56,363 bases of DNA from a virus (Duplodnaviria > Caudoviricetes). The DNA is taken from positions 1 through 56,363 of IMG/VR virus record IMGVR_UViG_3300049454_000020. One strand, given 5' to 3'. The position numbers and the translations under genes were made by a program. Positions 1 to 56,363 of the stretch are shown here, piece after piece (position 1 is the first letter of the stretch; every line of letters starts with the position of its first letter). The notes below the pieces were generated by a model, which saw only the letters and a list, made by a program, of their open reading frames with translations, was not told the DNA's origin and did no database searches.

Positions 1-160
1 AGGCGTAAGGCCGCGCGCGGAGGTGCGACTTCCTCCCAGGTCCCCGAACCCAGCCATCAAGGCTGGCGAGTCCGAGGAGACGGACATGCAGACCACCCCC
101 ACCCCCACCCCCACCCCCACCCCCACCCCCACGCCGATCCGCTGCGCACACCACAGCGCC
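1..160 (+). repeat. Terminal direct repeat / circular overlap, left copy
   Basis: Identical to 56210..56363 except for one extra ACCCCC unit. Confidence 0.97.
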
Positions 161-244
161 GCCGGGCAGTGCACTCGCACTCCCACCCAGATCACCTCCG
201 TCGGGCTCCTCTGCGAGGAGCACGTGAAGTTCTGGAAAAACTGA
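86..244 (+). CDS. Small protein with (Thr-Pro)7 repeat and Cys/His-rich C-terminus
   Basis: GAGGAG RBS at 74-79, ATG at 86; MQT(TP)7IRCAHH...C...LCEEH. Confidence 0.65.
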   Translation: MQTTPTPTPTPTPTPTPIRCAHHSAAGQCTRTPTQITSVGLLCEEHVKFWKN

Positions 245-340
245 TTCGAGCACGCGGCGGGCACCGGAATGAACACCCACTCCGGTGCCCGACCGAGCCG
301 CTCGGCTCAACTTCGAAATCGATCCAAGGAGAAAACCGAG

Positions 341-463: not shown

Positions 464-846
464 CGAGCGGGTGTCCGGTAGCCAAGCCGGCCGGGGAGGT
501 GCGAAGCCTCCCCACCCACGCGCAATGCCGGCTTAGCCGCTGAGCCGTGATCAGCGCGGGCGCCCACCAACGTGATTGGAGGCTAGGTAATCGGTGCCGA
601 ATCCGCCGAGAGGGAATCCCGCCGTATCCAGGGAGGCCATTCGGGAGGCGCGGTTTGGGCCCGGACGCAGAGTGCCACTGAGGGCAAAGGCAGCCAGCCG
701 GGGCGATACCGGGGAGGGCGAACCAGCGGCACGTCGGGAGCGAGCCCCGACCGTCCACGAGGCCGAAAGGCCCCACAGACCTCAGCACTAACCCGCGTAG
801 AGCACCCGTGAGGAGTGCCACGCGGCCTAGACCCCCAGGAGGGGCC
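464..846 (+). ncRNA. Putative structured non-coding RNA (tRNA-like element 469-517 plus multibranch domain about 583-830)
   Basis: No credible ORF; nested helices and GNRA tetraloops read by eye; family unknown. Confidence 0.55.
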
Positions 847-1589: not shown

Positions 1590-1637
1590 AAGCGCCGCAC
1601 GGCCCGGAGAGATCCGGTGCCGTGCGGCGCTTTTTTT
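1590..1637 (+). terminator. Intrinsic terminator at the convergence of the two transcription directions
   Basis: AAGCGCCGCACGGC...GCCGTGCGGCGCTT stem running into a T7 tract. Confidence 0.9.
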
Positions 1638-4141: not shown

Positions 4142-5227
4142 TCAGACCCTCGCGAACGGCGACGACGCCATGGCCCGCTGCCGGGTCAGCGCCTCAGCCC
4201 ACACCTCGGCCCACCGCCACGCGTGGCCCTCGATCGTCTCCGCGGCTGCGGCGGCCCTGCCGGCGGCGGACATGTCGACACGCAGACCCTGGTTGTCGAC
4301 GAGCCGCCTCAGCAGCTTGTGCCAGTCCTTCGGCGTCTCCGCCAGCAAACCGACGCGATGCCGGGCGTTGAACGCCGCGTACTCCACTCGAGGCGACGCG
4401 ACCCACGGCACCCCGCACGCCGACAGCTCGAGGACCTTCAGCCCGGACTTGGCGCGGTTGAATCCGGTGTCGGCGAGCGGGGCCATCCCGACGCCGAGCT
4501 CGGCCAGTCGCAGCGGCCAGTCGAGCAGGTCCACAGAACCGGTGCAGTCCGGGTCGCGGTCCAGTCCGAGCGCTTCCCGGAGGCCGTTCGGCGGCCCGAC
4601 GCCGCGGTACGTGTGGCCGGCGCGGACGAGGCGGGCGACAGCCGGGCCGACCTGTTGCAGGTCGAAGGGGTGGGAGTGAGTTGATCCGGGCCAGCCGAAC
4701 ACGGGCGAGTCGTGGTGAGGTATGCCGAGGTAGGCGGCGGGGACCCGGTTCGCGAGGACGCGGCCGCGACCGTGGGGGGCGTAGACGGGCAGCAGCGCCG
4801 GCGTCGACACGGTGACCATGGTCGCGTTGCGGCACGCGGTCTCCGCGTTCGCCCACGAGTGGCGCGGGTCGCGGCCCGTCTTCGGGTGCAGGCCCGCGAA
4901 CGCCGGGTTGTTGGGGTCGATCTTCGTGAGGTCGTCGTCCATGTCGACGACGACGGCGACGCCCTTCGCTCGGACCATCGGGATCGCCTGGACCAGATTG
5001 GACAATGACACCCGCTGCATGACGACGACGTCGGCGTCGGGTGGGACGTGCGCGGTGACGAGCTGGCCGGTGCGCTGGTCGAACTCGCCGCCGATCCCCT
5101 CCCGGTCCGACGGCATCATCACCCGCACGTCGAGGCCTTGCGCGCGCAGCACCGCCGCCGGGGCGATCAGCCGGTAGTAGCCGCAGCCGTGGGCGTCTGC
5201 GGGGTAGCAGTAGACGATCATTCTCAC
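4142..5227 (-). CDS. Glycosyltransferase, GT-B fold (GT4-like)
   Basis: GCGYYR, DMDDD, GWPGS, APLADTGFNRAKSGLKVLE motifs. Confidence 0.88.
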   Translation of the reverse strand: MRMIVYCYPADAHGCGYYRLIAPAAVLRAQGLDVRVMMPSDREGIGGEFDQRTGQLVTAHVPPDADVVVMQRVSLSNLVQAIPMVRAKGVAVVVDMDDDLTKIDPNNPAFAGLHPKTGRDPRHSWANAETACRNATMVTVSTPALLPVYAPHGRGRVLANRVPAAYLGIPHHDSPVFGWPGSTHSHPFDLQQVGPAVARLVRAGHTYRGVGPPNGLREALGLDRDPDCTGSVDLLDWPLRLAELGVGMAPLADTGFNRAKSGLKVLELSACGVPWVASPRVEYAAFNARHRVGLLAETPKDWHKLLRRLVDNQGLRVDMSAAGRAAAAAETIEGHAWRWAEVWAEALTRQRAMASSPFARV

Positions 5228-5272: not shown

Positions 5273-5914
5273 CTAGCCTGCTGCGTCTCCTCGCTCGGGG
5301 CGGCCGGACGTGTTGCCCATGACCTTGTCGTCGAGCCAGTGGTGGCGCCAGAGCCAGCTTTTGCGGCGCAGGTGCTTGATGGCCGCGCCGGCCTCGAGGC
5401 AGCCCAACGTGAAGTAGCGGTCCTCGCCGGAGTTGACCTGCCCCCGGTCGAGTTCTTTGAACCCGACGTGTTTGGCGAGGTCGGTGCGGACGAGGGTGGT
5501 GATGGTGGTCTCGATCGGGTTGGCGGGGTCGAACTCGTTGAGGTAGTGCCCGACGGGGAAGATCGGGTCGTCGTCGAGGATTCGGGTGGTCCCGTCCGCG
5601 AACTGCTGCATGATCTTGAACCAGGGGTAGACGAAATCCGCACCGGTCTCTTGCTGGTGCTGGACCAGCCACTCGAGGTGTTTGGGTAGGAACTCGTCGT
5701 CGGAGTCGAGGAACGCGACGAAGTCGGTTGTGGCGGCCGTCAGGGCGCGTTGCCGGGTCGCGGCGGCGCCTTCCCGGTCGTTGTCGACCGCGACGTGGAT
5801 GGCGTCGGGTGGCCGGGTTTGGCTGTGAACGCTGTCAATGGCGCGGGTGAGCATGCCGTTGCGGAGCCGTGCCGGATGGGCGGGGATGATGACGGAGACG
5901 GTGGGGCGGGTCAC
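5273..5914 (-). CDS. Glycosyltransferase family 2
   Basis: VSVIIPAH, AIDSVHSQT, FLDSDD (DxD), GED. Confidence 0.92.
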   Translation of the reverse strand: MTRPTVSVIIPAHPARLRNGMLTRAIDSVHSQTRPPDAIHVAVDNDREGAAATRQRALTAATTDFVAFLDSDDEFLPKHLEWLVQHQQETGADFVYPWFKIMQQFADGTTRILDDDPIFPVGHYLNEFDPANPIETTITTLVRTDLAKHVGFKELDRGQVNSGEDRYFTLGCLEAGAAIKHLRRKSWLWRHHWLDDKVMGNTSGRPERGDAAG

Positions 5915-7526: not shown

Positions 7527-8731
7527 AGCAGCACCGGCGTGGGGATGGGGACGATCCACCGGCCGCCCTGCTGCGCGAACTGCGCCTCTCGGCGCATCAC
7601 GTCGGGCAGGTAGTTCCAGACCGTCAGGACGTAGGTGTCCGGCTGTCGGCTGTCTGCGGTCGGGGACACGATCGGGATGCCGGTGCCGGGGACGTATCGG
7701 CCGTGTTTCGTCGGGGTGGTGTCCACCATGTACTGGATCAGGTCGGGGCCGATGCCGCAGAAGTTGAGCAGCGTCGTCGCCTTGGCCGACGCGCCGTAAC
7801 CGGCGACCCGCTTGCCGGCCTGTTTCTGCGCCTGCAGCATGTCCACCAGTCGGGCCCGGATCCGCTCCGCGCGTCCCTGCAGCCCGTCGAGGGCGTGCGG
7901 GCCGGCGAGCCACCGCTCGGCGCGCAGCAGCGCGGGCACGGTGTCGTCAGGAGGGCCGTCGCGGCCGATCGTAACCCGAAGGGATCCGCCCTGGGGGTTG
8001 ACCTGCTCCACGGACAAGGCCATCAGGCCCCGTTCGGCGAGTATCCGGTCGAGGGAGGTGAGGGTGAAGAACTGGCGGTGCTCGTGGTAGACGTGGTCGA
8101 ACTGGTTTCCGGTGACGAGGTCGGCGAGGTATTGGAACTCGACGACCGCGACGCCGTCGTCGGCGAGGAGCAACTCGATCCCGGCCACGAAATCGGCGAG
8201 GTCGGCGACGTGGGCGATGACGTTGTTCGCGACGATGAGCCCGGCGGGCTCGTGGTCGGCGAGGATGTCGAGGGCGGTCTGGCGGCCGAAGCCGCGGACG
8301 AGGACGTCAAGGCCCGCCTCGGCGGCCATCGCGGCGGGCCCGGCGGCGGGGTCGACGCCCAACGTCTCGCAGCCGGCTGCCTGTAGGTGTTTGAGGAGGG
8401 TGCCGTCGTTGCAGGCGATCTCGACGGTGAGCCGGCGCGCCAGGTCCCCGAACCGGCTGAGGAGCTGTTGGGCGTACAGGCGTTGGTGCTCGGCGGCGAC
8501 CCACGACGAGCCGGTGTAGAAGCCGTAGTCACCGCCCCACAGGTCAGCGTCCGGGACGAGTTCGGTGAGTTGGACGAGGGTGCAGACCCGGCACCGGAAC
8601 AGGCCCAGCGGCCACCTGCGCTGGCCGGGGTCGGGGCTGGTGGGGAAGTCGTCGGCGAGGGGCGAGTCGCCGAGGTCGAGGATTTGGACAATGCTGTCAG
8701 ATCCGCAGCCCCCGCACGCGGTTCGTCTCAT
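7523..8731 (-). CDS. NDP-sugar C-methyltransferase (TcaB9/NovU-like architecture)
   Basis: N-terminal Zn ribbon (CGGC...CRVC), EIACNDG, ANNVIAHV, FDHVYHEH, QGGSLR, C-terminal YGASAK...PGTGIPI. Confidence 0.92.
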   Translation of the reverse strand: MRRTACGGCGSDSIVQILDLGDSPLADDFPTSPDPGQRRWPLGLFRCRVCTLVQLTELVPDADLWGGDYGFYTGSSWVAAEHQRLYAQQLLSRFGDLARRLTVEIACNDGTLLKHLQAAGCETLGVDPAAGPAAMAAEAGLDVLVRGFGRQTALDILADHEPAGLIVANNVIAHVADLADFVAGIELLLADDGVAVVEFQYLADLVTGNQFDHVYHEHRQFFTLTSLDRILAERGLMALSVEQVNPQGGSLRVTIGRDGPPDDTVPALLRAERWLAGPHALDGLQGRAERIRARLVDMLQAQKQAGKRVAGYGASAKATTLLNFCGIGPDLIQYMVDTTPTKHGRYVPGTGIPIVSPTADSRQPDTYVLTVWNYLPDVMRREAQFAQQGGRWIVPIPTPVLL

Positions 8732-9708
8732 GACGCCAGGTTCCCTTCGTAGACGGCGGCCCACCGGTGGGCCTGCTTGTCGATCGTCCACATTCGCGCC
8801 GTCGCGAGCGCGCCCTCGGACAGCGCCGACAGCCAATTCGTGTCCCGCCGGCCGAGGAGAAACGTCAGCGCCTCTTGCAGGTTGTCGCCGCGCGCCCCCG
8901 GGTAGGTCAGCCCGTTCACCTCGTCGTCGACCAGGTCGGGGTATTGGCCGATGGCCGGCACGACCGGGATCACGCCGCGGCTCATGTACTCGAGCGCTTT
9001 GATCCACGACTTCGACGAGTTGAACGGGGTGTCCGCGAGTGGGGCGAGGCCGACGTCGAAGTCGAGCGCGCGCCAGTAGGCATCCATCGTGGACCATCCG
9101 TTGTGCTCATTCGGAATGCCACCCATGTAGTCGGCTCCGATGGTCCGGAATCGGACGCCGTTCCCAGCGACGCGCCGCAACGAGGCCCGGTCGTGGTCGG
9201 TCCAGTCCTGGGCGTGGAACGGTGATCCGGCCCACCCGATCGTGGTCACGCCCGGCCGCCGCTCGGCGGGCACGACGCTTGCCGGGTGCACGCAGTTCTG
9301 CAGCACCACGACCTGTTTGTTGTATGCCCGGCACAGTGCCGCCAACCTGTGGGTGGACACGGTGACGACGTCGGCGGCCGCGATGTTCGCCTTGATGTTC
9401 TCGGCCACGTCCGGCCGGCCGTACAGGGAGTAGGGGATGGTGTTGGCGGGGTCGACGTTCAACAGGTTGTCGTCGAGGTCGTAGACGGCCAGGACGCCCG
9501 GCGTCTCGCAGACGCGGCGCCAGGCCGGGTTGTCGTCGGCGAGGCGCTGCCCGACGACGACGTCTCCGGCGGCAAGCTCGGCGGGGTCGGGCCCGCGCCA
9601 GATGACCTCGAACCGCTCCGGGTCGAGGTGTGTCAGCGGCAGATGCAGCCGGTAGTGCCAGCAGCCCGCGGTGTCGGTCGCGATCGCGAACACGCGACGC
9701 CGGGTCAC
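8728..9708 (-). CDS. Glycosyltransferase, GT-B fold; paralog of 4142..5227
   Basis: GCWHYR, YDLDD, IGWAGS, APLADTPFNSSKSWIKALE. Confidence 0.88.
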   Translation of the reverse strand: MTRRRVFAIATDTAGCWHYRLHLPLTHLDPERFEVIWRGPDPAELAAGDVVVGQRLADDNPAWRRVCETPGVLAVYDLDDNLLNVDPANTIPYSLYGRPDVAENIKANIAAADVVTVSTHRLAALCRAYNKQVVVLQNCVHPASVVPAERRPGVTTIGWAGSPFHAQDWTDHDRASLRRVAGNGVRFRTIGADYMGGIPNEHNGWSTMDAYWRALDFDVGLAPLADTPFNSSKSWIKALEYMSRGVIPVVPAIGQYPDLVDDEVNGLTYPGARGDNLQEALTFLLGRRDTNWLSALSEGALATARMWTIDKQAHRWAAVYEGNLAS

Positions 9709-10394
9709 CACGGCCGGCTCCCCCATTTGGCGGCGAACGCTTCGCCGTCGCGGCCTGCCTGCTCGGCGAGGCCGGGGACCGTGGCGATGAAGGCGTTGGG
9801 GAGCCGGTTCGGGACCGGGTGCCCGCCGATCATGACCATTCCGCCTGCGGCGCGGGCTTGCCAGTCGACGTCGGTGTCGCACCACCACCACGCCATCGAC
9901 TCGTCGGGGACGACCTTCTCACGGCCGTCGAGGATCCACGCCCATCCGGGCATCCGGCCCGCGATGTCGTTGTCAGGCGCGGTTTTGAGGCGGGGCTCGT
10001 GCTCGTGGCCGAACGGGTTGGAGCAGCCCACGGCGGCTCCGGTGGCGTCCATCGCGGCGACGACGGCGTCGTACCAGCCGGGTGGGGGGACGGTGTCGTC
10101 GCAGAGGATCGCGATGTGCCAGGGCCCTTCCTCGCCGTGGCGCAGGCTCGTGGCGGCGTGGATGGCGATGTTCCACAGCCGGGACAGGTTCGGCGGCTGG
10201 TCCGGCACGGTGAATAGGGCGACGCGGTAGCCGTCGTCGAATCCCGGCTCGAGGAGGCGGGTTGTGATCGCGGGTTGTGAGGCGTTGTCGACGACGATGA
10301 CGACGTCGACTTGGGGGCCGATCGCGGCGACGCAGTCTTTCAACAGGTCGGGGCGGTTGTGGGTGAAGATGGCCGCGAAGCGACGGGGGATCAT
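9705..10394 (-). CDS. Glycosyltransferase, GT-A fold (GT2-like)
   Basis: THNRPDLLKDC, VVDNAS, ILCDD, WWCDTD. Confidence 0.8.
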   Translation of the reverse strand: MIPRRFAAIFTHNRPDLLKDCVAAIGPQVDVVIVVDNASQPAITTRLLEPGFDDGYRVALFTVPDQPPNLSRLWNIAIHAATSLRHGEEGPWHIAILCDDTVPPPGWYDAVVAAMDATGAAVGCSNPFGHEHEPRLKTAPDNDIAGRMPGWAWILDGREKVVPDESMAWWWCDTDVDWQARAAGGMVMIGGHPVPNRLPNAFIATVPGLAEQAGRDGEAFAAKWGSRPW

Positions 10395-28341: not shown

Positions 28342-29396
28342 ACCAACTCCCCAGCCTGGTAGCGGTAGCCACCGTCGATGAGGGCGAAGATGTCCTGCGA
28401 CAGCGGCGACGCGTCGCCGCCCCTGGTGACGACGTCGGCGAACGCCTCCGCCGCCAGCTCGTGTGGGTTCGTCACCGCGTAGTCGGAGATCTGGTCCCGC
28501 GCCAAAGCGGACGGTTTCACCCCGGCGGCCTTCGCCTTCATGGTGACGTGTTTCTTCGACGCGGTCGCGGTCGCGGTGTGGTGGGCTACCACATGCCCGA
28601 ACTCGTGGTGCGCGACCCCGGCCGGGGTCGGCACAGACAACCAGCCGGTCTCAGCGTTCGACTTGAGCGACGCCCGGTACTTCTCCGGGTTGCCGGCGAA
28701 CTCGGTGTTGAACGCGATCTCGTCGAGGTTGCCGTGACGGGTCACGGCGTAGGCATCAGTCGCGGAGTGCAAAGTCGACCTGGAACCGGGCCCGTAGGTG
28801 CGGATCGACGACACCTGCGCTTGGGGGAACATCTCCAAATCTTGGAGGACGGCCTCGCCGTGCTCGCGGGCGATCTGCGGGTCGGAGCCCGTCATGTCGC
28901 ACCGCACCTGCCGTCCCGTGATCGACGAGGCTTCAGCGGCGACGACGGCGGACACCTCGTCGGTAGTCTTCGCGTCGCGGAGGGAAGGCCGCATCGACCC
29001 TTCCTCTCCGTGCGCACCAGACCCACCACCGCCCCCACTGCCGTGGCCTTTCGGGTCCGGGCCGTCGGCGGCCTTTGGCTTCGCGCACGGGCCGGGGTGG
29101 CGGGGGTTCAGGCAGTAGAAACACCCAGCCCACCGCACACGGTCCCCAACCCCGGACGCGACCCCAGCCGCCCGCGCGATCTGTGCCGCTATCGCATCCA
29201 TCACCTCAGCCAACGCTGCGGCCATCGCCGCCTCAGCCCGGTCCTCCCACCCAGCCAACGCGGCGTCGTCAAGGCCCCGAATCCGACGCGAACGCGCCGC
29301 GGCCACCACAACAGCGTCCGCGTCCGGAGGCGACAACACCTCCACCGGGAACTCGGCGTCGTCGACAACCCTGTCAGCGAAAGACGCGACGGTCAC
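28338..29396 (-). CDS. CCHC-tagged zincin-like metallopeptidase
   Basis: HEFGH plus downstream SDYA....ELAAEAF; internal WAGCFYCLNPRHPGPCAKP. Confidence 0.78.
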   Translation of the reverse strand: MTVASFADRVVDDAEFPVEVLSPPDADAVVVAAARSRRIRGLDDAALAGWEDRAEAAMAAALAEVMDAIAAQIARAAGVASGVGDRVRWAGCFYCLNPRHPGPCAKPKAADGPDPKGHGSGGGGGSGAHGEEGSMRPSLRDAKTTDEVSAVVAAEASSITGRQVRCDMTGSDPQIAREHGEAVLQDLEMFPQAQVSSIRTYGPGSRSTLHSATDAYAVTRHGNLDEIAFNTEFAGNPEKYRASLKSNAETGWLSVPTPAGVAHHEFGHVVAHHTATATASKKHVTMKAKAAGVKPSALARDQISDYAVTNPHELAAEAFADVVTRGGDASPLSQDIFALIDGGYRYQAGELV

Positions 29397-30202
29397 GGCA
29401 TCACCTCGACATCAACCGTCCGCACGCCGCCGACGTCGTATTCCCGCCGCACCTTGAACTTCAACCCCCGCTGCAGGACGAGCTCATCCGTGTCGAACCC
29501 CTGCGAACCCATCGCCCCTGTCCCCTTCGGAACCAGGATCCGCATCTCCAGGCCCGTCTTGTTGCCGCTGTACCGGCCCGACGCGCCACCCGCCGTCGTC
29601 GTCGACACGTAGCCGTGATCCCGGAACTCCAAGCCGGTCAACGGCCCGTCGTGCCCGAACAGCTTCGACGCGTCCGACACGCCCCGATGCACGACCACAT
29701 CCCGGTCGAGCTTCGAATGCGCCATACCCGCGTCCAGGCCGGTCGTCATGTCGGTGACCCGCTTCGGGCTGTAATGCAGCACCTTCGGCATCTCCGCGGG
29801 CGGGTTCGCGACGTCGCCGCCAGTGGACCGCAACGAGTTGTTGACCATGGCGTAGCCGTTGTCGCCGTAGTCGTACGCGGCGTCGGAGACCTTGTCCCCG
29901 GACACGCCGGTTCCGCCGAAATCGTCGTCGTCGTAGGTGAGGTCGCTTTCGGTCTGGCGGTTGTACGGCGCGGCTTTCGCGGCTGCGGGCCCGGTGGCGG
30001 CTTTCGACGCGCGGTCTTCGAACGACCCCTTCGCACCGGTGCCACCACCGCCGCCTTTGACTTTTGGGGCGTCCTTGGCCTTGCCGTGCCGCTTCTCGTA
30101 CGCCTTGCTGCCCGGTTTGGCGCACGGCCCCGGATGCCTCGGGTTCAGGCAGTAAAAGCATCCCGCCCAAACCTCGCGGATCTTGGTGTCCACGGGGATC
30201 AC
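29393..30202 (-). CDS. CCHC-tagged VIP2-type ADP-ribosyltransferase
   Basis: YAMVNNSLR, HRG, YVSTT, DELVLQRG; N-terminal WAGCFYCLNPRHPGPCAKP. Confidence 0.85.
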   Translation of the reverse strand: MIPVDTKIREVWAGCFYCLNPRHPGPCAKPGSKAYEKRHGKAKDAPKVKGGGGGTGAKGSFEDRASKAATGPAAAKAAPYNRQTESDLTYDDDDFGGTGVSGDKVSDAAYDYGDNGYAMVNNSLRSTGGDVANPPAEMPKVLHYSPKRVTDMTTGLDAGMAHSKLDRDVVVHRGVSDASKLFGHDGPLTGLEFRDHGYVSTTTAGGASGRYSGNKTGLEMRILVPKGTGAMGSQGFDTDELVLQRGLKFKVRREYDVGGVRTVDVEVMP

Positions 30203-53001: not shown

Positions 53002-53826
53002 ATGACCAATCTCATCCACCGCCACCTCAAGCACCTAAAGGTAGGCGGCCGAAGCCCGAACACCATCTACGACAGAGGCAGAGTCCTCGTCCGAGTCGAC
53101 GCCGAACTCCCCTGGGGCGTCGAGGACGCGGACGGCGAGGAGATCGCCGACTGGTTCGACGGCCGCAAGTGGTCGCCCGCCACCCGCGCCTGCTACTGGA
53201 TGCACCTCTGCTGCTTCTACGACTGGGCCGTCGCCGAGCCGGACGGCCCTACCCTCAACCCCATGTCCAGGCTCATCCGCCCACCCGCCGCCCACCACCT
53301 CCCCGACCCCGTCACCGACGACGAGCTGGCGCTCGCGATCAACCGGTCACCGGAGCAGCCCTACGGCCTCGCCGCCTACCTCGGCTCCTACGCCGGGCTG
53401 CGCTGCGGCGAGATCGCGGCCCTCCAGCGCGAGGACATCACCGAGCAGCGCGTCTTCGTCCGGCACGGCAAAGGCGACCGGCCGCGCTACGTCGACACGT
53501 CCCCGATCCTGTGGGAGCGCGTCAAGGACATGCCGCACGGCGTCCTGATTCGCGGCAAGCGCGGACGGCCCATCGGGGGGCGCACGCTCACGCAAGAGCA
53601 GCACCGGCACTGGGTCAGCGTCGACCTGCCGAGAGTCCACCTTCACCGGTTCCGGCACTGGTTCGCGACCACGCTCCTCGTCGGGGGAGCGGACATCCGC
53701 AGCGTCCAGGAGCTGATGGGTCACGCGTCGCTAGCCACCACCGAGCGGTACCTCAAAGTCGTCGACAAGCACCGCCGGGCCGCTGTCCGGTTGCTCCCGA
53801 TGGTGGTGGCACGAGCCGGGGCTTAG
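53002..53826 (+). CDS. Tyrosine integrase lacking an N-terminal arm-binding domain
   Basis: GLR..E, GKG, HRFRH, LMGH, TERY; only 274 aa. Confidence 0.93.
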   Translation: MTNLIHRHLKHLKVGGRSPNTIYDRGRVLVRVDAELPWGVEDADGEEIADWFDGRKWSPATRACYWMHLCCFYDWAVAEPDGPTLNPMSRLIRPPAAHHLPDPVTDDELALAINRSPEQPYGLAAYLGSYAGLRCGEIAALQREDITEQRVFVRHGKGDRPRYVDTSPILWERVKDMPHGVLIRGKRGRPIGGRTLTQEQHRHWVSVDLPRVHLHRFRHWFATTLLVGGADIRSVQELMGHASLATTERYLKVVDKHRRAAVRLLPMVVARAGA

Positions 53827-55189: not shown

Positions 55190-55630
55190 TCCGTGAGGGT
55201 GGCAGAGGTGCGCAAGAATTCGCGTCGTCCGTTCGGCTGGCGAGGGGCCATTCTCCGCGTCCAACGGGTATCGCGCGCATGGGCCGCGGAGCGACAACTG
55301 GATGGGCATGAGAAGTCTGTAATTCCGATTTCCGCGTACCACGGCCGGGCAAGGTACGCCGCCACCCGGCCGTCAACCTGTAGCGCCAGACCGTCCTCCA
55401 CCTTATGCACAATGGTGTTGCATCGAGGACACAGCAAGCCGCGGACGGCGAGCCAGCCGAGCGCATGGTCGTGGTCAAGGAACAGGCCAACACCACTGCG
55501 ACGCATTGGTTTTCCACAGATCTCGCAGCATCCACCCGAGCGCGCCAACAGCAACTCGTGCTGCTGGCACGTGATGTGGTACGCCCGGTGCGCGCAGCGC
55601 GGATAAGTGCGGTGCGCCTTGCCTGTTCAC
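55186..55630 (-). CDS. Endonuclease VII-like nuclease with an anomalous 5' end
   Basis: YHIT...LL....G.CEIC, LDHDH...VRGLLCPRCN; GTG at 55630 is one base out of frame. Confidence 0.75.
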
Positions 55631-55818
55631 TCGGCGGATTCGGGGCGGTGACGGGCAACGTACCGCCGTAGGGCGCGCTCAATCACGGCGGTCATCGTCT
55701 CGTTTTTCAGTGCCGCAATCGCCGCCGCCTCGTCCCAAACCGCTCCGACTCGGATGTTGCGCTTTGGGGTCACGCCAGTTCTGGGCCGGCCGCGCGGCCG
55801 TTTACCTGCTTCGTCCAT
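55627..55818 (-). CDS. Ribbon-helix-helix-like DNA-binding protein
   Basis: RGRP.TG.TP.RNIRV...W..A.......TMTAVIERALRRY; TACGTT 7 nt before ATG suggests leaderless translation. Confidence 0.8.
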   Translation of the reverse strand: MDEAGKRPRGRPRTGVTPKRNIRVGAVWDEAAAIAALKNETMTAVIERALRRYVARHRPESAE

Positions 55819-55854
55819 ACGAGTAAACGTACCACCGAAATGTGCCCCGGGCCC

Positions 55855-55884
55855 TTGCGTCCCTCTGGTTTTCTGTGGTACACT
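55855..55884 (+). promoter_or_regulatory. SigA/HrdB-type promoter driving the junction-spanning transcript
   Basis: TTGCGT-N18-TACACT with TG extension; predicted start about 55891. Confidence 0.7.
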
Positions 55885-55890
55885 AAATGT

Positions 55891-56290
55891 ACAAGGCAAG
55901 GACAACTACACAGCACAGACCACTAGCCAGGAACCGGGACCCGAAAGGGCAGCAGGAGGGCTATCGGGAAACAAGCCTCCAGCGCGGGGTGACGAAAGCC
56001 AAGCGATCACGAGAACGAGGTCGGGACAGTGCGCAGGACAGGACGGGGATAGCCCCCGAACCGCGAGCGCCTCTAGCCGACACGGACGAACGCGACACGA
56101 CAGCCGAGCAACACCCCCGCCCCCAGGCAGACGACACCGCGCAGACGCGCGACCGGCGCCGGGGGCCACGGACCGCGAGACGCAGCGCAGGCAGCCTGAC
56201 CGACCACTGAGGCGTAAGGCCGCGCGCGGAGGTGCGACTTCCTCCCAGGTCCCCGAACCCAGCCATCAAGGCTGGCGAGTCCGAGGAGAC
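55891..56290 (+). ncRNA. Putative ~400-nt structured, U-poor leader or ncRNA
   Basis: No credible ORF; several hairpins; tRNA-like closure at 56161-56254. Confidence 0.5.
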
Positions 56291-56363
56291 GGACATGCAG
56301 ACCACCCCCACCCCCACCCCCACCCCCACCCCCACGCCGATCCGCTGCGCACACCACAGCGCC
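56210..56363 (+). repeat. Terminal direct repeat / circular overlap, right copy
   Basis: Matches 1..160 with five rather than six ACCCCC units. Confidence 0.97.

Follow-up and report, generated by a model that had tools for sequence, protein, structure and literature searches.

A U-poor, multi-domain leader RNA of an apparently undescribed family at the head of a membrane-protein operon in an actinophage-like virus

The DNA studied here is the IMG/VR virus record IMGVR_UViG_3300049454_000020, a stretch of 56,363 nucleotides (nt) with a GC content of about 69%, which is called the window below. A plus-strand operon starts close to its right end and continues at its left end, and the first spacer of this operon (block A, 55890-56294) was homologous to the leaders of 12 other viral contigs. 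Block A is probably the untranslated 5' leader of the operon, a structured RNA which would act most likely in cis on translation, and it is a member of an apparently undescribed family of large, U-poor, multi-domain structured RNAs. The leader could be divided into a 5' domain (D1), an optional middle module (M), a junction domain (D2) and a translation-start module, which ends at the first open reading frame of the operon (ORF1). An initial annotation of the window had described loose, hairpin-rich spacer at this place; instead, one homologous multi-domain leader ending in a translation-start module was identified.

The entry point to the family was a 620-nt contig of sequencing run X2, which matched only 55912-55971 with six differences and had unlike flanks. 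Exact and degenerate pattern scans of IMG/VR made from this stretch gave loci L035, L036 and L051-L054, and a covariance model (R1) together with a second pattern gave L061, L065, L066, L067, L068 and L074 (the same as L077). With full-length R1, 13 distinct loci were obtained at 78-109 bits, the window scoring 108.9 and the other 12 scoring 78-107. Three further loci (L080, L082 and L087) came from a scan with a junction pattern, and in these the start module stood directly before a membrane gene of the type linked to the leader, without D1. The family is small, with 13 D1 loci and three others, and was ascertained by patterns. The discovery patterns fixed some loop words, though not the stems. 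Rejected candidates were 12 of the 19 new stretches of the second pattern scan, which were not D1, and nine of the 12 new stretches of the junction-pattern scan, which were not the module.

When RNAalifold was run on a plain MAFFT alignment of seven sequences, the D1 fold was predicted, with compensatory changes in 9 of 18 pairs. In the alignment of 13 sequences, which was fitted to the model R1, 99.6% of the cells pair and 11 of the 18 pairs were changed on both sides; none of 500 shuffles reached any of these measures, and partners slid by 1-3 columns paired at 29-49%. The gathering of homologues and the test of covariation that the initial annotation had proposed were carried out in this way, with shuffle controls, and D1 was found to be an aptamer-like domain supported by covariation. 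Helix P1b, for example, occurs as UAGCC/GGCUA, CGCGG/CCGCG, UAGGG/CCCUA, CAGGG/CCCUG and CACCC/GGGUG. The tetraloop of P2 is GAAA, GCAA, GCGA or GAGA, the loop of P3 is CAGCGY in 11 of 13 loci with covarying stems beneath it, and the internal loops of D1 are conserved as near-invariant unpaired words. The GNRA loops and the G-U pairs indicate that D1 is RNA of the plus strand.

Two hairpins had been named in this region by the initial annotation. The one with the sequence CCC-GAAA-GGG (55940-49) stood, as it is the conserved GNRA hairpin P2. The other one, GGAGGGCT/AGCCTCC (55955-80), was favoured by single-sequence folding (centroid) but was not conserved, and its arms belong to P1b and P3, having other pairing partners in the relatives. 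In L061 (5528-5623, minus strand), and in this locus only, five consecutive U (GUGGUUUUUCA) stand behind P3 of D1, so that D1 there could end in an intrinsic terminator, giving a short RNA.

Module M and D2 follow D1 in the window. By blastn, 55904-56149 matched L036 and 55912-56157 matched L068, both at 78%. In L067, L066 and L061 the D2-equivalent part comes directly after D1, so 55997-56107 could be recognized as an optional insert. The stretch from 56108 through the terminal overlap of the record to position 92 matched L067 (75.5%), L066, L061, L053 and L068. The helices of D2 were read by inspection; MAFFT put them out of register, so no pair count is given. In short leaders the closing helix is CAGGC/GCCUG, GCGAGC/GCUCGC or GACGCG/CGCGUC.

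D2 also holds a T-loop-type hairpin, whose stems vary among loci with the pairing kept, as read by eye and without a formal count. Its loop is UUCGAUC in L066 and L068, UUCGACU in L067, UGCGACU in L053 and UGCGACUU in the window, where the loop of the copy is 8 nt long and its closing helix is imperfect. The junction of L066 could be placed on RF01684 (mascRNA-menRNA), an acceptor stem being stacked on a T arm, with 25.1 bits against a cut-off of 42.5 and an E value of 0.006 for a 431-nt search or 0.78 in a 54-kb search. This sub-threshold match was seen in L066 only, with none in the window, and no tRNA gene was detected by ARAGORN in the window and in 12 loci.

The translation-start module contains two hairpins, of which the second presents the Shine-Dalgarno (SD) sequence in its loop, directly before the start codon. 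For 15 modules from 11 loci, RNAalifold predicted exactly these two hairpins; 93.3% of the cells pair, 8 of 9 pairs covary, and the score was reached in 0 of 500 shuffles. The module also recurs ahead of later cistrons, with an SD loop of 6-7 nt. At 21 of 28 ORF starts of the operons, an SD-in-loop hairpin was observed whose end lies 0-3 nt ahead of the start, against 65 of 364 controls, which were NTG codons with an SD word elsewhere in the window, and the loop was AGGGAGA at 14 of the 28 starts. In the window, the membrane gene has such a hairpin (CCCC-AGGA-GGGG) ahead of its ATG at 847.

In many relatives a fixed CACUCCC word stands just 5' of the first hairpin of the module. The fold in which this anti-SD word pairs with the SD and the fold with the SD hairpin were predicted to lie 0.4-4.6 kcal/mol apart in 8 of the 10 modules tested, these eight being from relatives and the other two being without the words. 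Among the 13 D1 loci, CUCCC was present in the leader of nine and UCUCCC in that of three; the window has one CUCCC.

The leader is marked by its composition as well. Block A contains only 12 T in 300 nt, which is the extreme of the window on either strand (mean 47.5, standard deviation 9.2), as the initial annotation had noticed in calling the first block U-poor. U makes up 5.8% over 394 nt, in which only three NUG triplets occur. All 13 leaders have a U content of 5.8-9.5%, against 14-18% locus-wide, and the leaders of the family are about 220-545 nt long. Searches for direct, inverted and tandem repeats gave nothing notable within block A.

The promoter that had been read upstream of block A is present in the sequence, and its equivalent occurs in the relatives. 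Ten of 13 loci have a site of the form TTGnnn-N16-18-TAnnnT, often with TGn, no more than 90 nt upstream of D1, compared with 8 of 1158 control windows taken from these loci. No call was made at 55855-84 by a generic consensus promoter scan at its threshold, because the site matches only 7 of 12 consensus positions. Since the promoter is conserved in place, D1 would lie at the 5' end of a transcript.

The layout of the operon agreed with the earlier description in most respects. Two micro-ORFs and one membrane gene were confirmed, with spacers measured as 405 nt (55890-56294), 96 nt (245-340) and 383 nt (464-846) where about 400, 95 and 380 nt had been given; the start of ORF2 as first read had to be corrected to 341. 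The terminator was confirmed as a stem at 1591-1631 with a T run. Periodicity of the GC content at third codon positions (GC3) gave a coding signal at 51-230, 321-440 and 860-1560 and was flat at 55840-56200 and 470-830. By this measure ORF1, ORF2 and the membrane gene look coding and the three spacers look non-coding. The features are collected in Table 1.

Table 1. Features of the leader, of the operon and of its neighbourhood in the window
Feature	Position	Strand	Remarks
Promoter-like site	55855-55884	+	TTGCGT (55855-60), 18 nt, TACACT (55879-84); preceding TGG gives an extended -10
Leader domain D1, 96 nt	55901-55996	+	Irregular GNRA-capped hairpin and second hairpin P3; R1 108.9 bits
D1 helix P1a	55920-21/55966-67	+	
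D1 helix P1b	55924-28/55959-63	+	
D1 helix P1c	55934-35/55955-56	+	
D1 helix P2	55940-42/55947-49	+	GNRA loop GAAA, 55943-46
D1 helix P3	55975-79/55986-90	+	Loop CAGCGC, 55980-85
Optional middle module M	55997-56107	+	Absent in L067, L066 and L061
Leader domain D2	56108-56252	+	blastn; stems read by inspection
D2 helix GCCCCC/GGGGGC (family GCCCCS/SGGGGC)	56119-24/56161-66	+	C-G here, G-C in L067
D2 closing helix GGACC/GGTCC	56170-74/56248-52	+	
T-loop-type hairpin of D2, GGAGG-TGCGACTT-CCTCC	56228-45	+	Equals 19-36
ORF1 start module	56259-56297	+	Equals 50-88; 15 modules aligned
Pre-SD hairpin CCAGCC-ATCAA-GGCTGG	56259-75	+	
SD-in-loop hairpin GTCCG-AGGAGA-CGGAC	56279-94	+	5 base pairs, 6-nt loop equal to the SD; ATG 56295-97 adjoining
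ORF1, 52 amino acids (aa)	86-244	+	Pro-Thr repeat, then Cys-rich tail; GC3 0.87-0.97; start repeated at 56295 (terminal overlap)
Strong hairpin after ORF1, GGGCACCGGA ... TCCGGTGCCC	259-290	+	No T run behind
ORF2, 40 aa	341-463	+	Lys/Arg-rich; start 341; GC3 0.87-1.0
Second long spacer (block C)	464-846	+	Flat GC3; minimum free energy (MFE) z -1.0
T-loop-type hairpin in block C	493-513	+	
Conserved pseudoknot-like motif in block C	528-557	+	A-U pair of relatives is C-G here
Membrane protein, 244 aa	847-1581	+	DUF2637-like; PF10935 14.0 bits
Intrinsic terminator	1591-1637	+	Long GC stem (1591-1631) and run of seven T
Tyrosine integrase	53002-53826	+	
Divergent Arc/ribbon-helix-helix (RHH)-like gene, 63 aa	55627-55818	-	phrog_6506, E 3.5e-6; Pfam PF07704 and PF09957 below cut-off

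For the leader as a cis-acting element, the following mechanism could be proposed. It would act on translation initiation through a two-state switch, in which, in many relatives, the CUCCC word just upstream may pair with the SD and so replace the SD hairpin, the two being predicted to have almost the same energy. The conserved upstream domains might bias this switch if they bind a small ligand or a factor of the host or the phage. The depletion of U would remove NUG starts, stop codons beginning with U, U tracts and AU-rich nuclease sites, and may so keep the long leader silent and stable. The family would then be a new one of a known type, the structured cis-regulatory leader, with a real chance that it is more than this. 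A wider proposal, held tentatively, is a new class of large phage riboregulator, in which the leader, with its GNRA hairpin, T-loop junction and other helices, might sense a cellular signal or be cut into a trans-acting immunity RNA, setting translation of the cassette through the SD-in-loop modules, and in which the membrane protein would perhaps serve superinfection exclusion. The sensed signal could then be, for example, a metabolite, the ribosome, a tRNA or a protein of the host.

Several observations weigh against a regulatory leader acting in cis. Single-sequence folding of block A did not go beyond shuffles (MFE z -0.9), and the invariance of some loop words was partly built in by the discovery patterns, which fixed those words. 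D1 was found in none of the 32 closest relatives of the membrane gene (L003-L034), and it is not essential to the module, as L080 keeps the promoter, a short leader, the junction and the start module with the D1 hairpin missing. The ORF1 module of the window is without an adjacent CUCCC anti-SD word, so that the CCUCC arm of the T-loop hairpin would have to take its part in a switch there, and the two-state idea rests mainly on the relatives. No regulator gene was common to the neighbourhoods of the loci, and no RNA sequencing run was found to carry the leader sequence.

Folding energy did not support the earlier term "hairpin-rich". Neither block A nor block C stood out (z -0.9 and -1.0), and only the hairpin at 259-290 did so: the fold of 242-345, which contains it, reached -44.7 kcal/mol with z -4.8, and 0 of 200 shuffles were equally stable. 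This hairpin was not called by the terminator scan. The idea that the transcript is largely structured RNA was upheld for the first block by comparative evidence, and is not shown by folding energy.

The main rival to the cis-acting leader, rather unlikely in our judgement, is excision of the leader to give a stand-alone RNA, with the junction that holds the T-loop serving as tRNA-like punctuation for RNase P or RNase Z. Cleavage could free a stable structured RNA of 170-330 nt together with a short-leader mRNA, and the freed RNA could act in trans by pairing UCUCCC or CUCCC with the AGGGAGA loops of the operon starts, resembling the P1 c4 and P4 CI RNAs; the "processed" idea of the initial annotation would then be right. 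In most leaders a closed junction does contain a hairpin of the T-loop type, with UUCGA or UGCGA in its loop, the L066 junction fits the tRNA-like mascRNA model, the SD loops are unusually uniform, and complementary UCUCCC occurs in the junctions of L051, L052, L065, L068, L080, L082 and L087. Yet the mascRNA score stayed below its cut-off, in one locus only and with the weak E value of the 54-kb search, ARAGORN saw no tRNA, no CCA stands behind the stem, the window leader is without UCUCCC, and there was no C4-type match in Rfam. Unlikely, too, is a constitutive "armour", in which there is no regulated switch and a fold that is compact, poor in U and GC-clamped, with hairpins presenting the SD, would shield an mRNA expressed from the prophage against RNases of the host or the phage and insulate the translation of each cistron. 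This would suit the U depletion of 13 of 13 leaders, the identical start module before cistrons of unrelated sequence and the want of a regulator in common among the neighbours, but the near-invariant internal-loop words of D1, the GNRA loop and the T-loop point to specific tertiary or intermolecular contacts, and a competing anti-SD word is conserved at a fixed position.

D1 might otherwise be an antitermination element of the HK022 put type, which would bind RNA polymerase and let it read through the hairpins and long untranslated spacers of the operon. D1 consists of two hairpins starting 8-53 nt past the -10 hexamer, and long untranslated stretches and the very stable hairpin at 259-290 lie within the operon; this reading is nevertheless distinctly improbable, as there is no U-tract terminator inside the operon, L080 keeps the remaining leader without the D1 hairpin, and no similarity to any curated family was found. 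That block A is not RNA at all, being either a disordered protein gene free of U-containing codons (for example the frame 55887-56210) or a DNA element, for instance an operator, a phage attachment site (attP) or an origin, was given the least weight, and coding or purely DNA-level readings are very unlikely. All plus-strand frames are open since T is rare, and integrase and regulator genes are close by. Against this, GC3 is flat where real genes here show 0.83-0.96, the 107-aa frame had no Pfam or PHROG match, block A is free of repeats, whole modules are present or absent among relatives, and compensatory changes keep the helices paired, GNRA loops and strand-specific G-U pairs being present as well.

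Compared with known systems, the leader shares with riboswitch and T-box leaders a large conserved multi-helix structure right after the promoter, conserved unpaired loop and junction nucleotides with GNRA and T-loop motifs, and a 3' SD which is predicted to take two exclusive pairings. It differs from them in that no Rfam family matches it and neither a ligand nor a tRNA partner is known, in the start module repeated before several cistrons, in the modular leader with optional parts, and in its carriers and cargo, which are phage contigs and a DUF2637-like membrane protein. The P1/P7 c4 RNA and the P4 CI RNA are leader-derived phage immunity RNAs matured by RNase P. Like them, the leader is a structured RNA at the head of a lysogeny-region phage operon, with a tRNA-like feature that could direct processing and with short words that may pair with ribosome-binding sites of its own operon. 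Unlike them, it gave no C4 match in Rfam, its processing is only a candidate, and the complementarity is 5-6 nt long, coincides in part with the general SD/anti-SD rule and is weak for the window itself.

The put RNAs of HK022 are processive antitermination RNAs and, when compared by description rather than with a model, also show two adjacent hairpins right after a phage-operon promoter; the present leader differs in running 130-450 nt further as conserved structure and in lacking internal U-tract terminators. With tRNA-like punctuation elements, such as mascRNA of MALAT1 and the t-elements of plant mitochondria, the L066 leader shares an acceptor-like helix on a T arm within a longer transcript, but its score was below cut-off, the setting is bacterial or phage, no standard anticodon arm is present, and the window copy departs further by its 8-nt loop and imperfect closing helix. 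ROOL and GOLLD are free-standing genes of 400-800 nt which are held in Rfam. The leader resembles them as a big, intricately folded RNA of function unknown carried by phages or prophages, and differs from them in having no Rfam match and in being fused to a translated operon, where it ends in the ribosome-binding site.

Large multi-domain RNAs with tertiary-contact motifs are rare and have repeatedly proved to be riboswitches, ribozymes or RNA machines. The leader is phage-borne, lies in the lysogeny corner, and controls or accompanies a DUF2637 membrane family of unknown function; so far it is found only in soil-type viral contigs. For RNA biology it would offer a defined candidate amenable to compensatory mutation, and for phage biology a handle on the expression of "moron" cassettes in actinophages. 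Two of its features, the start module repeated with the SD in a loop and the extreme depletion of U, are unusual in themselves.

Known RNA families and other replicons were searched as well. The Rfam scan proposed by the initial annotation (Rfam 15, whole window) gave no match at gathering thresholds, in agreement with its remark that no known family could be assigned. At E values up to 10, only two short chance-level matches, neither of them within D1 or D2, were obtained in 55750-56363, and only look-alikes of terminator hairpins in 1-1700. No match was found when 55600-56363 and 1-1700 were compared by blastn with 50,697 cultured phage records, or when the leader was compared with 72,556 plasmids. 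R1 gave no match in 151 actinobacterial genomes (of the class of a Pseudonocardiaceae metagenome-assembled genome), which shows little as only 27 candidates were scored per genome. From the contigs of three DNA sequencing runs came only the source contig, a 60-nt piece of D1 and a 117-nt near-identical piece. A literature search, in which supplementary motif tables were outside the search, found no description of this RNA. An 18-mer search of 185,579 species genomes gave 14 matches, mostly in Sorangium, which were set aside because all of them looked like chance when their flanks were inspected.

Downstream of the leader, neither micro-ORF was conserved. ORF1 had no Pfam match at cut-off and no relative in the other loci; ORF2 had no Pfam match in the correct frame and no relative in the other loci, the tblastn query for the latter being one base out of frame. 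The "RNA-plus-peptide" unit of the initial annotation therefore did not hold, as it is the leader and the membrane gene that are conserved. In block C, 501-627 matched L066 by blastn and 530-559 matched L068 and L035. In L066, up to four tandem words of the form AGGGA-nn-CCGCCGAAU were observed about +700-800 from D1, in the spacer before the membrane gene, and the word also occurs in L035, in L061 and at 600-640 of the window; it could be a repeated protein-binding or folding unit.

The membrane gene accompanies the leader throughout the family. A multi-pass membrane gene was found downstream in 11 of the 11 D1 loci with enough sequence, the other two being cut. It follows about 130-260 nt downstream in L051, L052, L054 and L065, and in the window, L035, L061, L066, L067, L068 and L074 it comes behind one to four unrelated small ORFs. 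The PF10935 cut-off of 22.8 bits was passed by four of the 11 proteins (L061 43.1, L066 50.2, L068 26.5 and L035 25.3); six were below it, including that of the window (E 0.048), and L054 gave no match. As a single query, the membrane protein of the window found no viral locus. Altogether 74 relatives were found, and one distant homologue, P0074, carries PF10935. For L003-L034, which were found through the membrane-protein alignment, nucleotide similarity was confined to the gene, and MAFFT of the regions upstream gave no usable conservation.

When the C-termini of the membrane proteins of the window, L035, L051, L052, L054, L061, L065, L066, L067, L068 and L074 were compared, an (A)PVSP word was seen near the end of almost all of them, behind the transmembrane part and a basic stretch rich in Ala, Lys and Arg. 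Its variants are EPVSPA in the window and PMSP in L074, and L035 is without the word. It looks like a conserved docking or modification site, as judged from these sequences.

The source is a soil virus of a temperate, actinophage-like kind that lacks close relatives in culture, and its capsid protein has less than 30% identity to the capsids of Microbacterium, Gordonia and Mycobacterium phages. Nearly all genes are on the minus strand: early genes of the RecET/RuvC type come first, then the genes for terminase, portal, capsid and tape measure, and the series closes with a lysis-side end at about 1.7 kb. The other genome end carries, besides the integrase, a GntR-type gene, an endonuclease VII gene and an Arc/RHH-like gene, and the operon is located in the lysogeny-side corner of this temperate, high-GC actinophage-like genome. 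The divergent RHH gene that had been reported beside the promoter was borne out by its Arc-like PHROG match, its RHH-type matches in Pfam remaining below cut-off. Among the relatives, a serine-recombinase-like ORF of 474 aa is divergent to the leader operon in L051, and a tyrosine-recombinase-like ORF lies upstream of it in L052, both judged by eye from the translation.

The terminal 154 nt of the record (56210-56363) are a copy of 1-160 minus one CCCCCA unit. The operon layout across the record ends was as claimed for a junction-spanning transcript, and this end repeat identifies the "circular junction" itself as an overlap left by the assembly of a genome that is circular or terminally redundant. 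The Pro-Thr repeat of ORF1, made of CCACCC units, has 6.7 copies at 93-132 and 5.7 at 56302-56335 in the terminal overlap, a difference due either to variation in repeat length within the sampled population or to a slip of the assembly, and because of which the record is classed as linear in IMG/VR.

Elsewhere in the window, a gene of 269 aa (29396-30202, minus strand) among the head-morphogenesis genes had a PHROG match labelled ADP-ribosyltransferase (E 3.3e-10). Three glycosyltransferase-like genes were observed in the tail and lysis-side region, at 4145-5227, 5276-5914 and 8731-9891, all of them on the minus strand.

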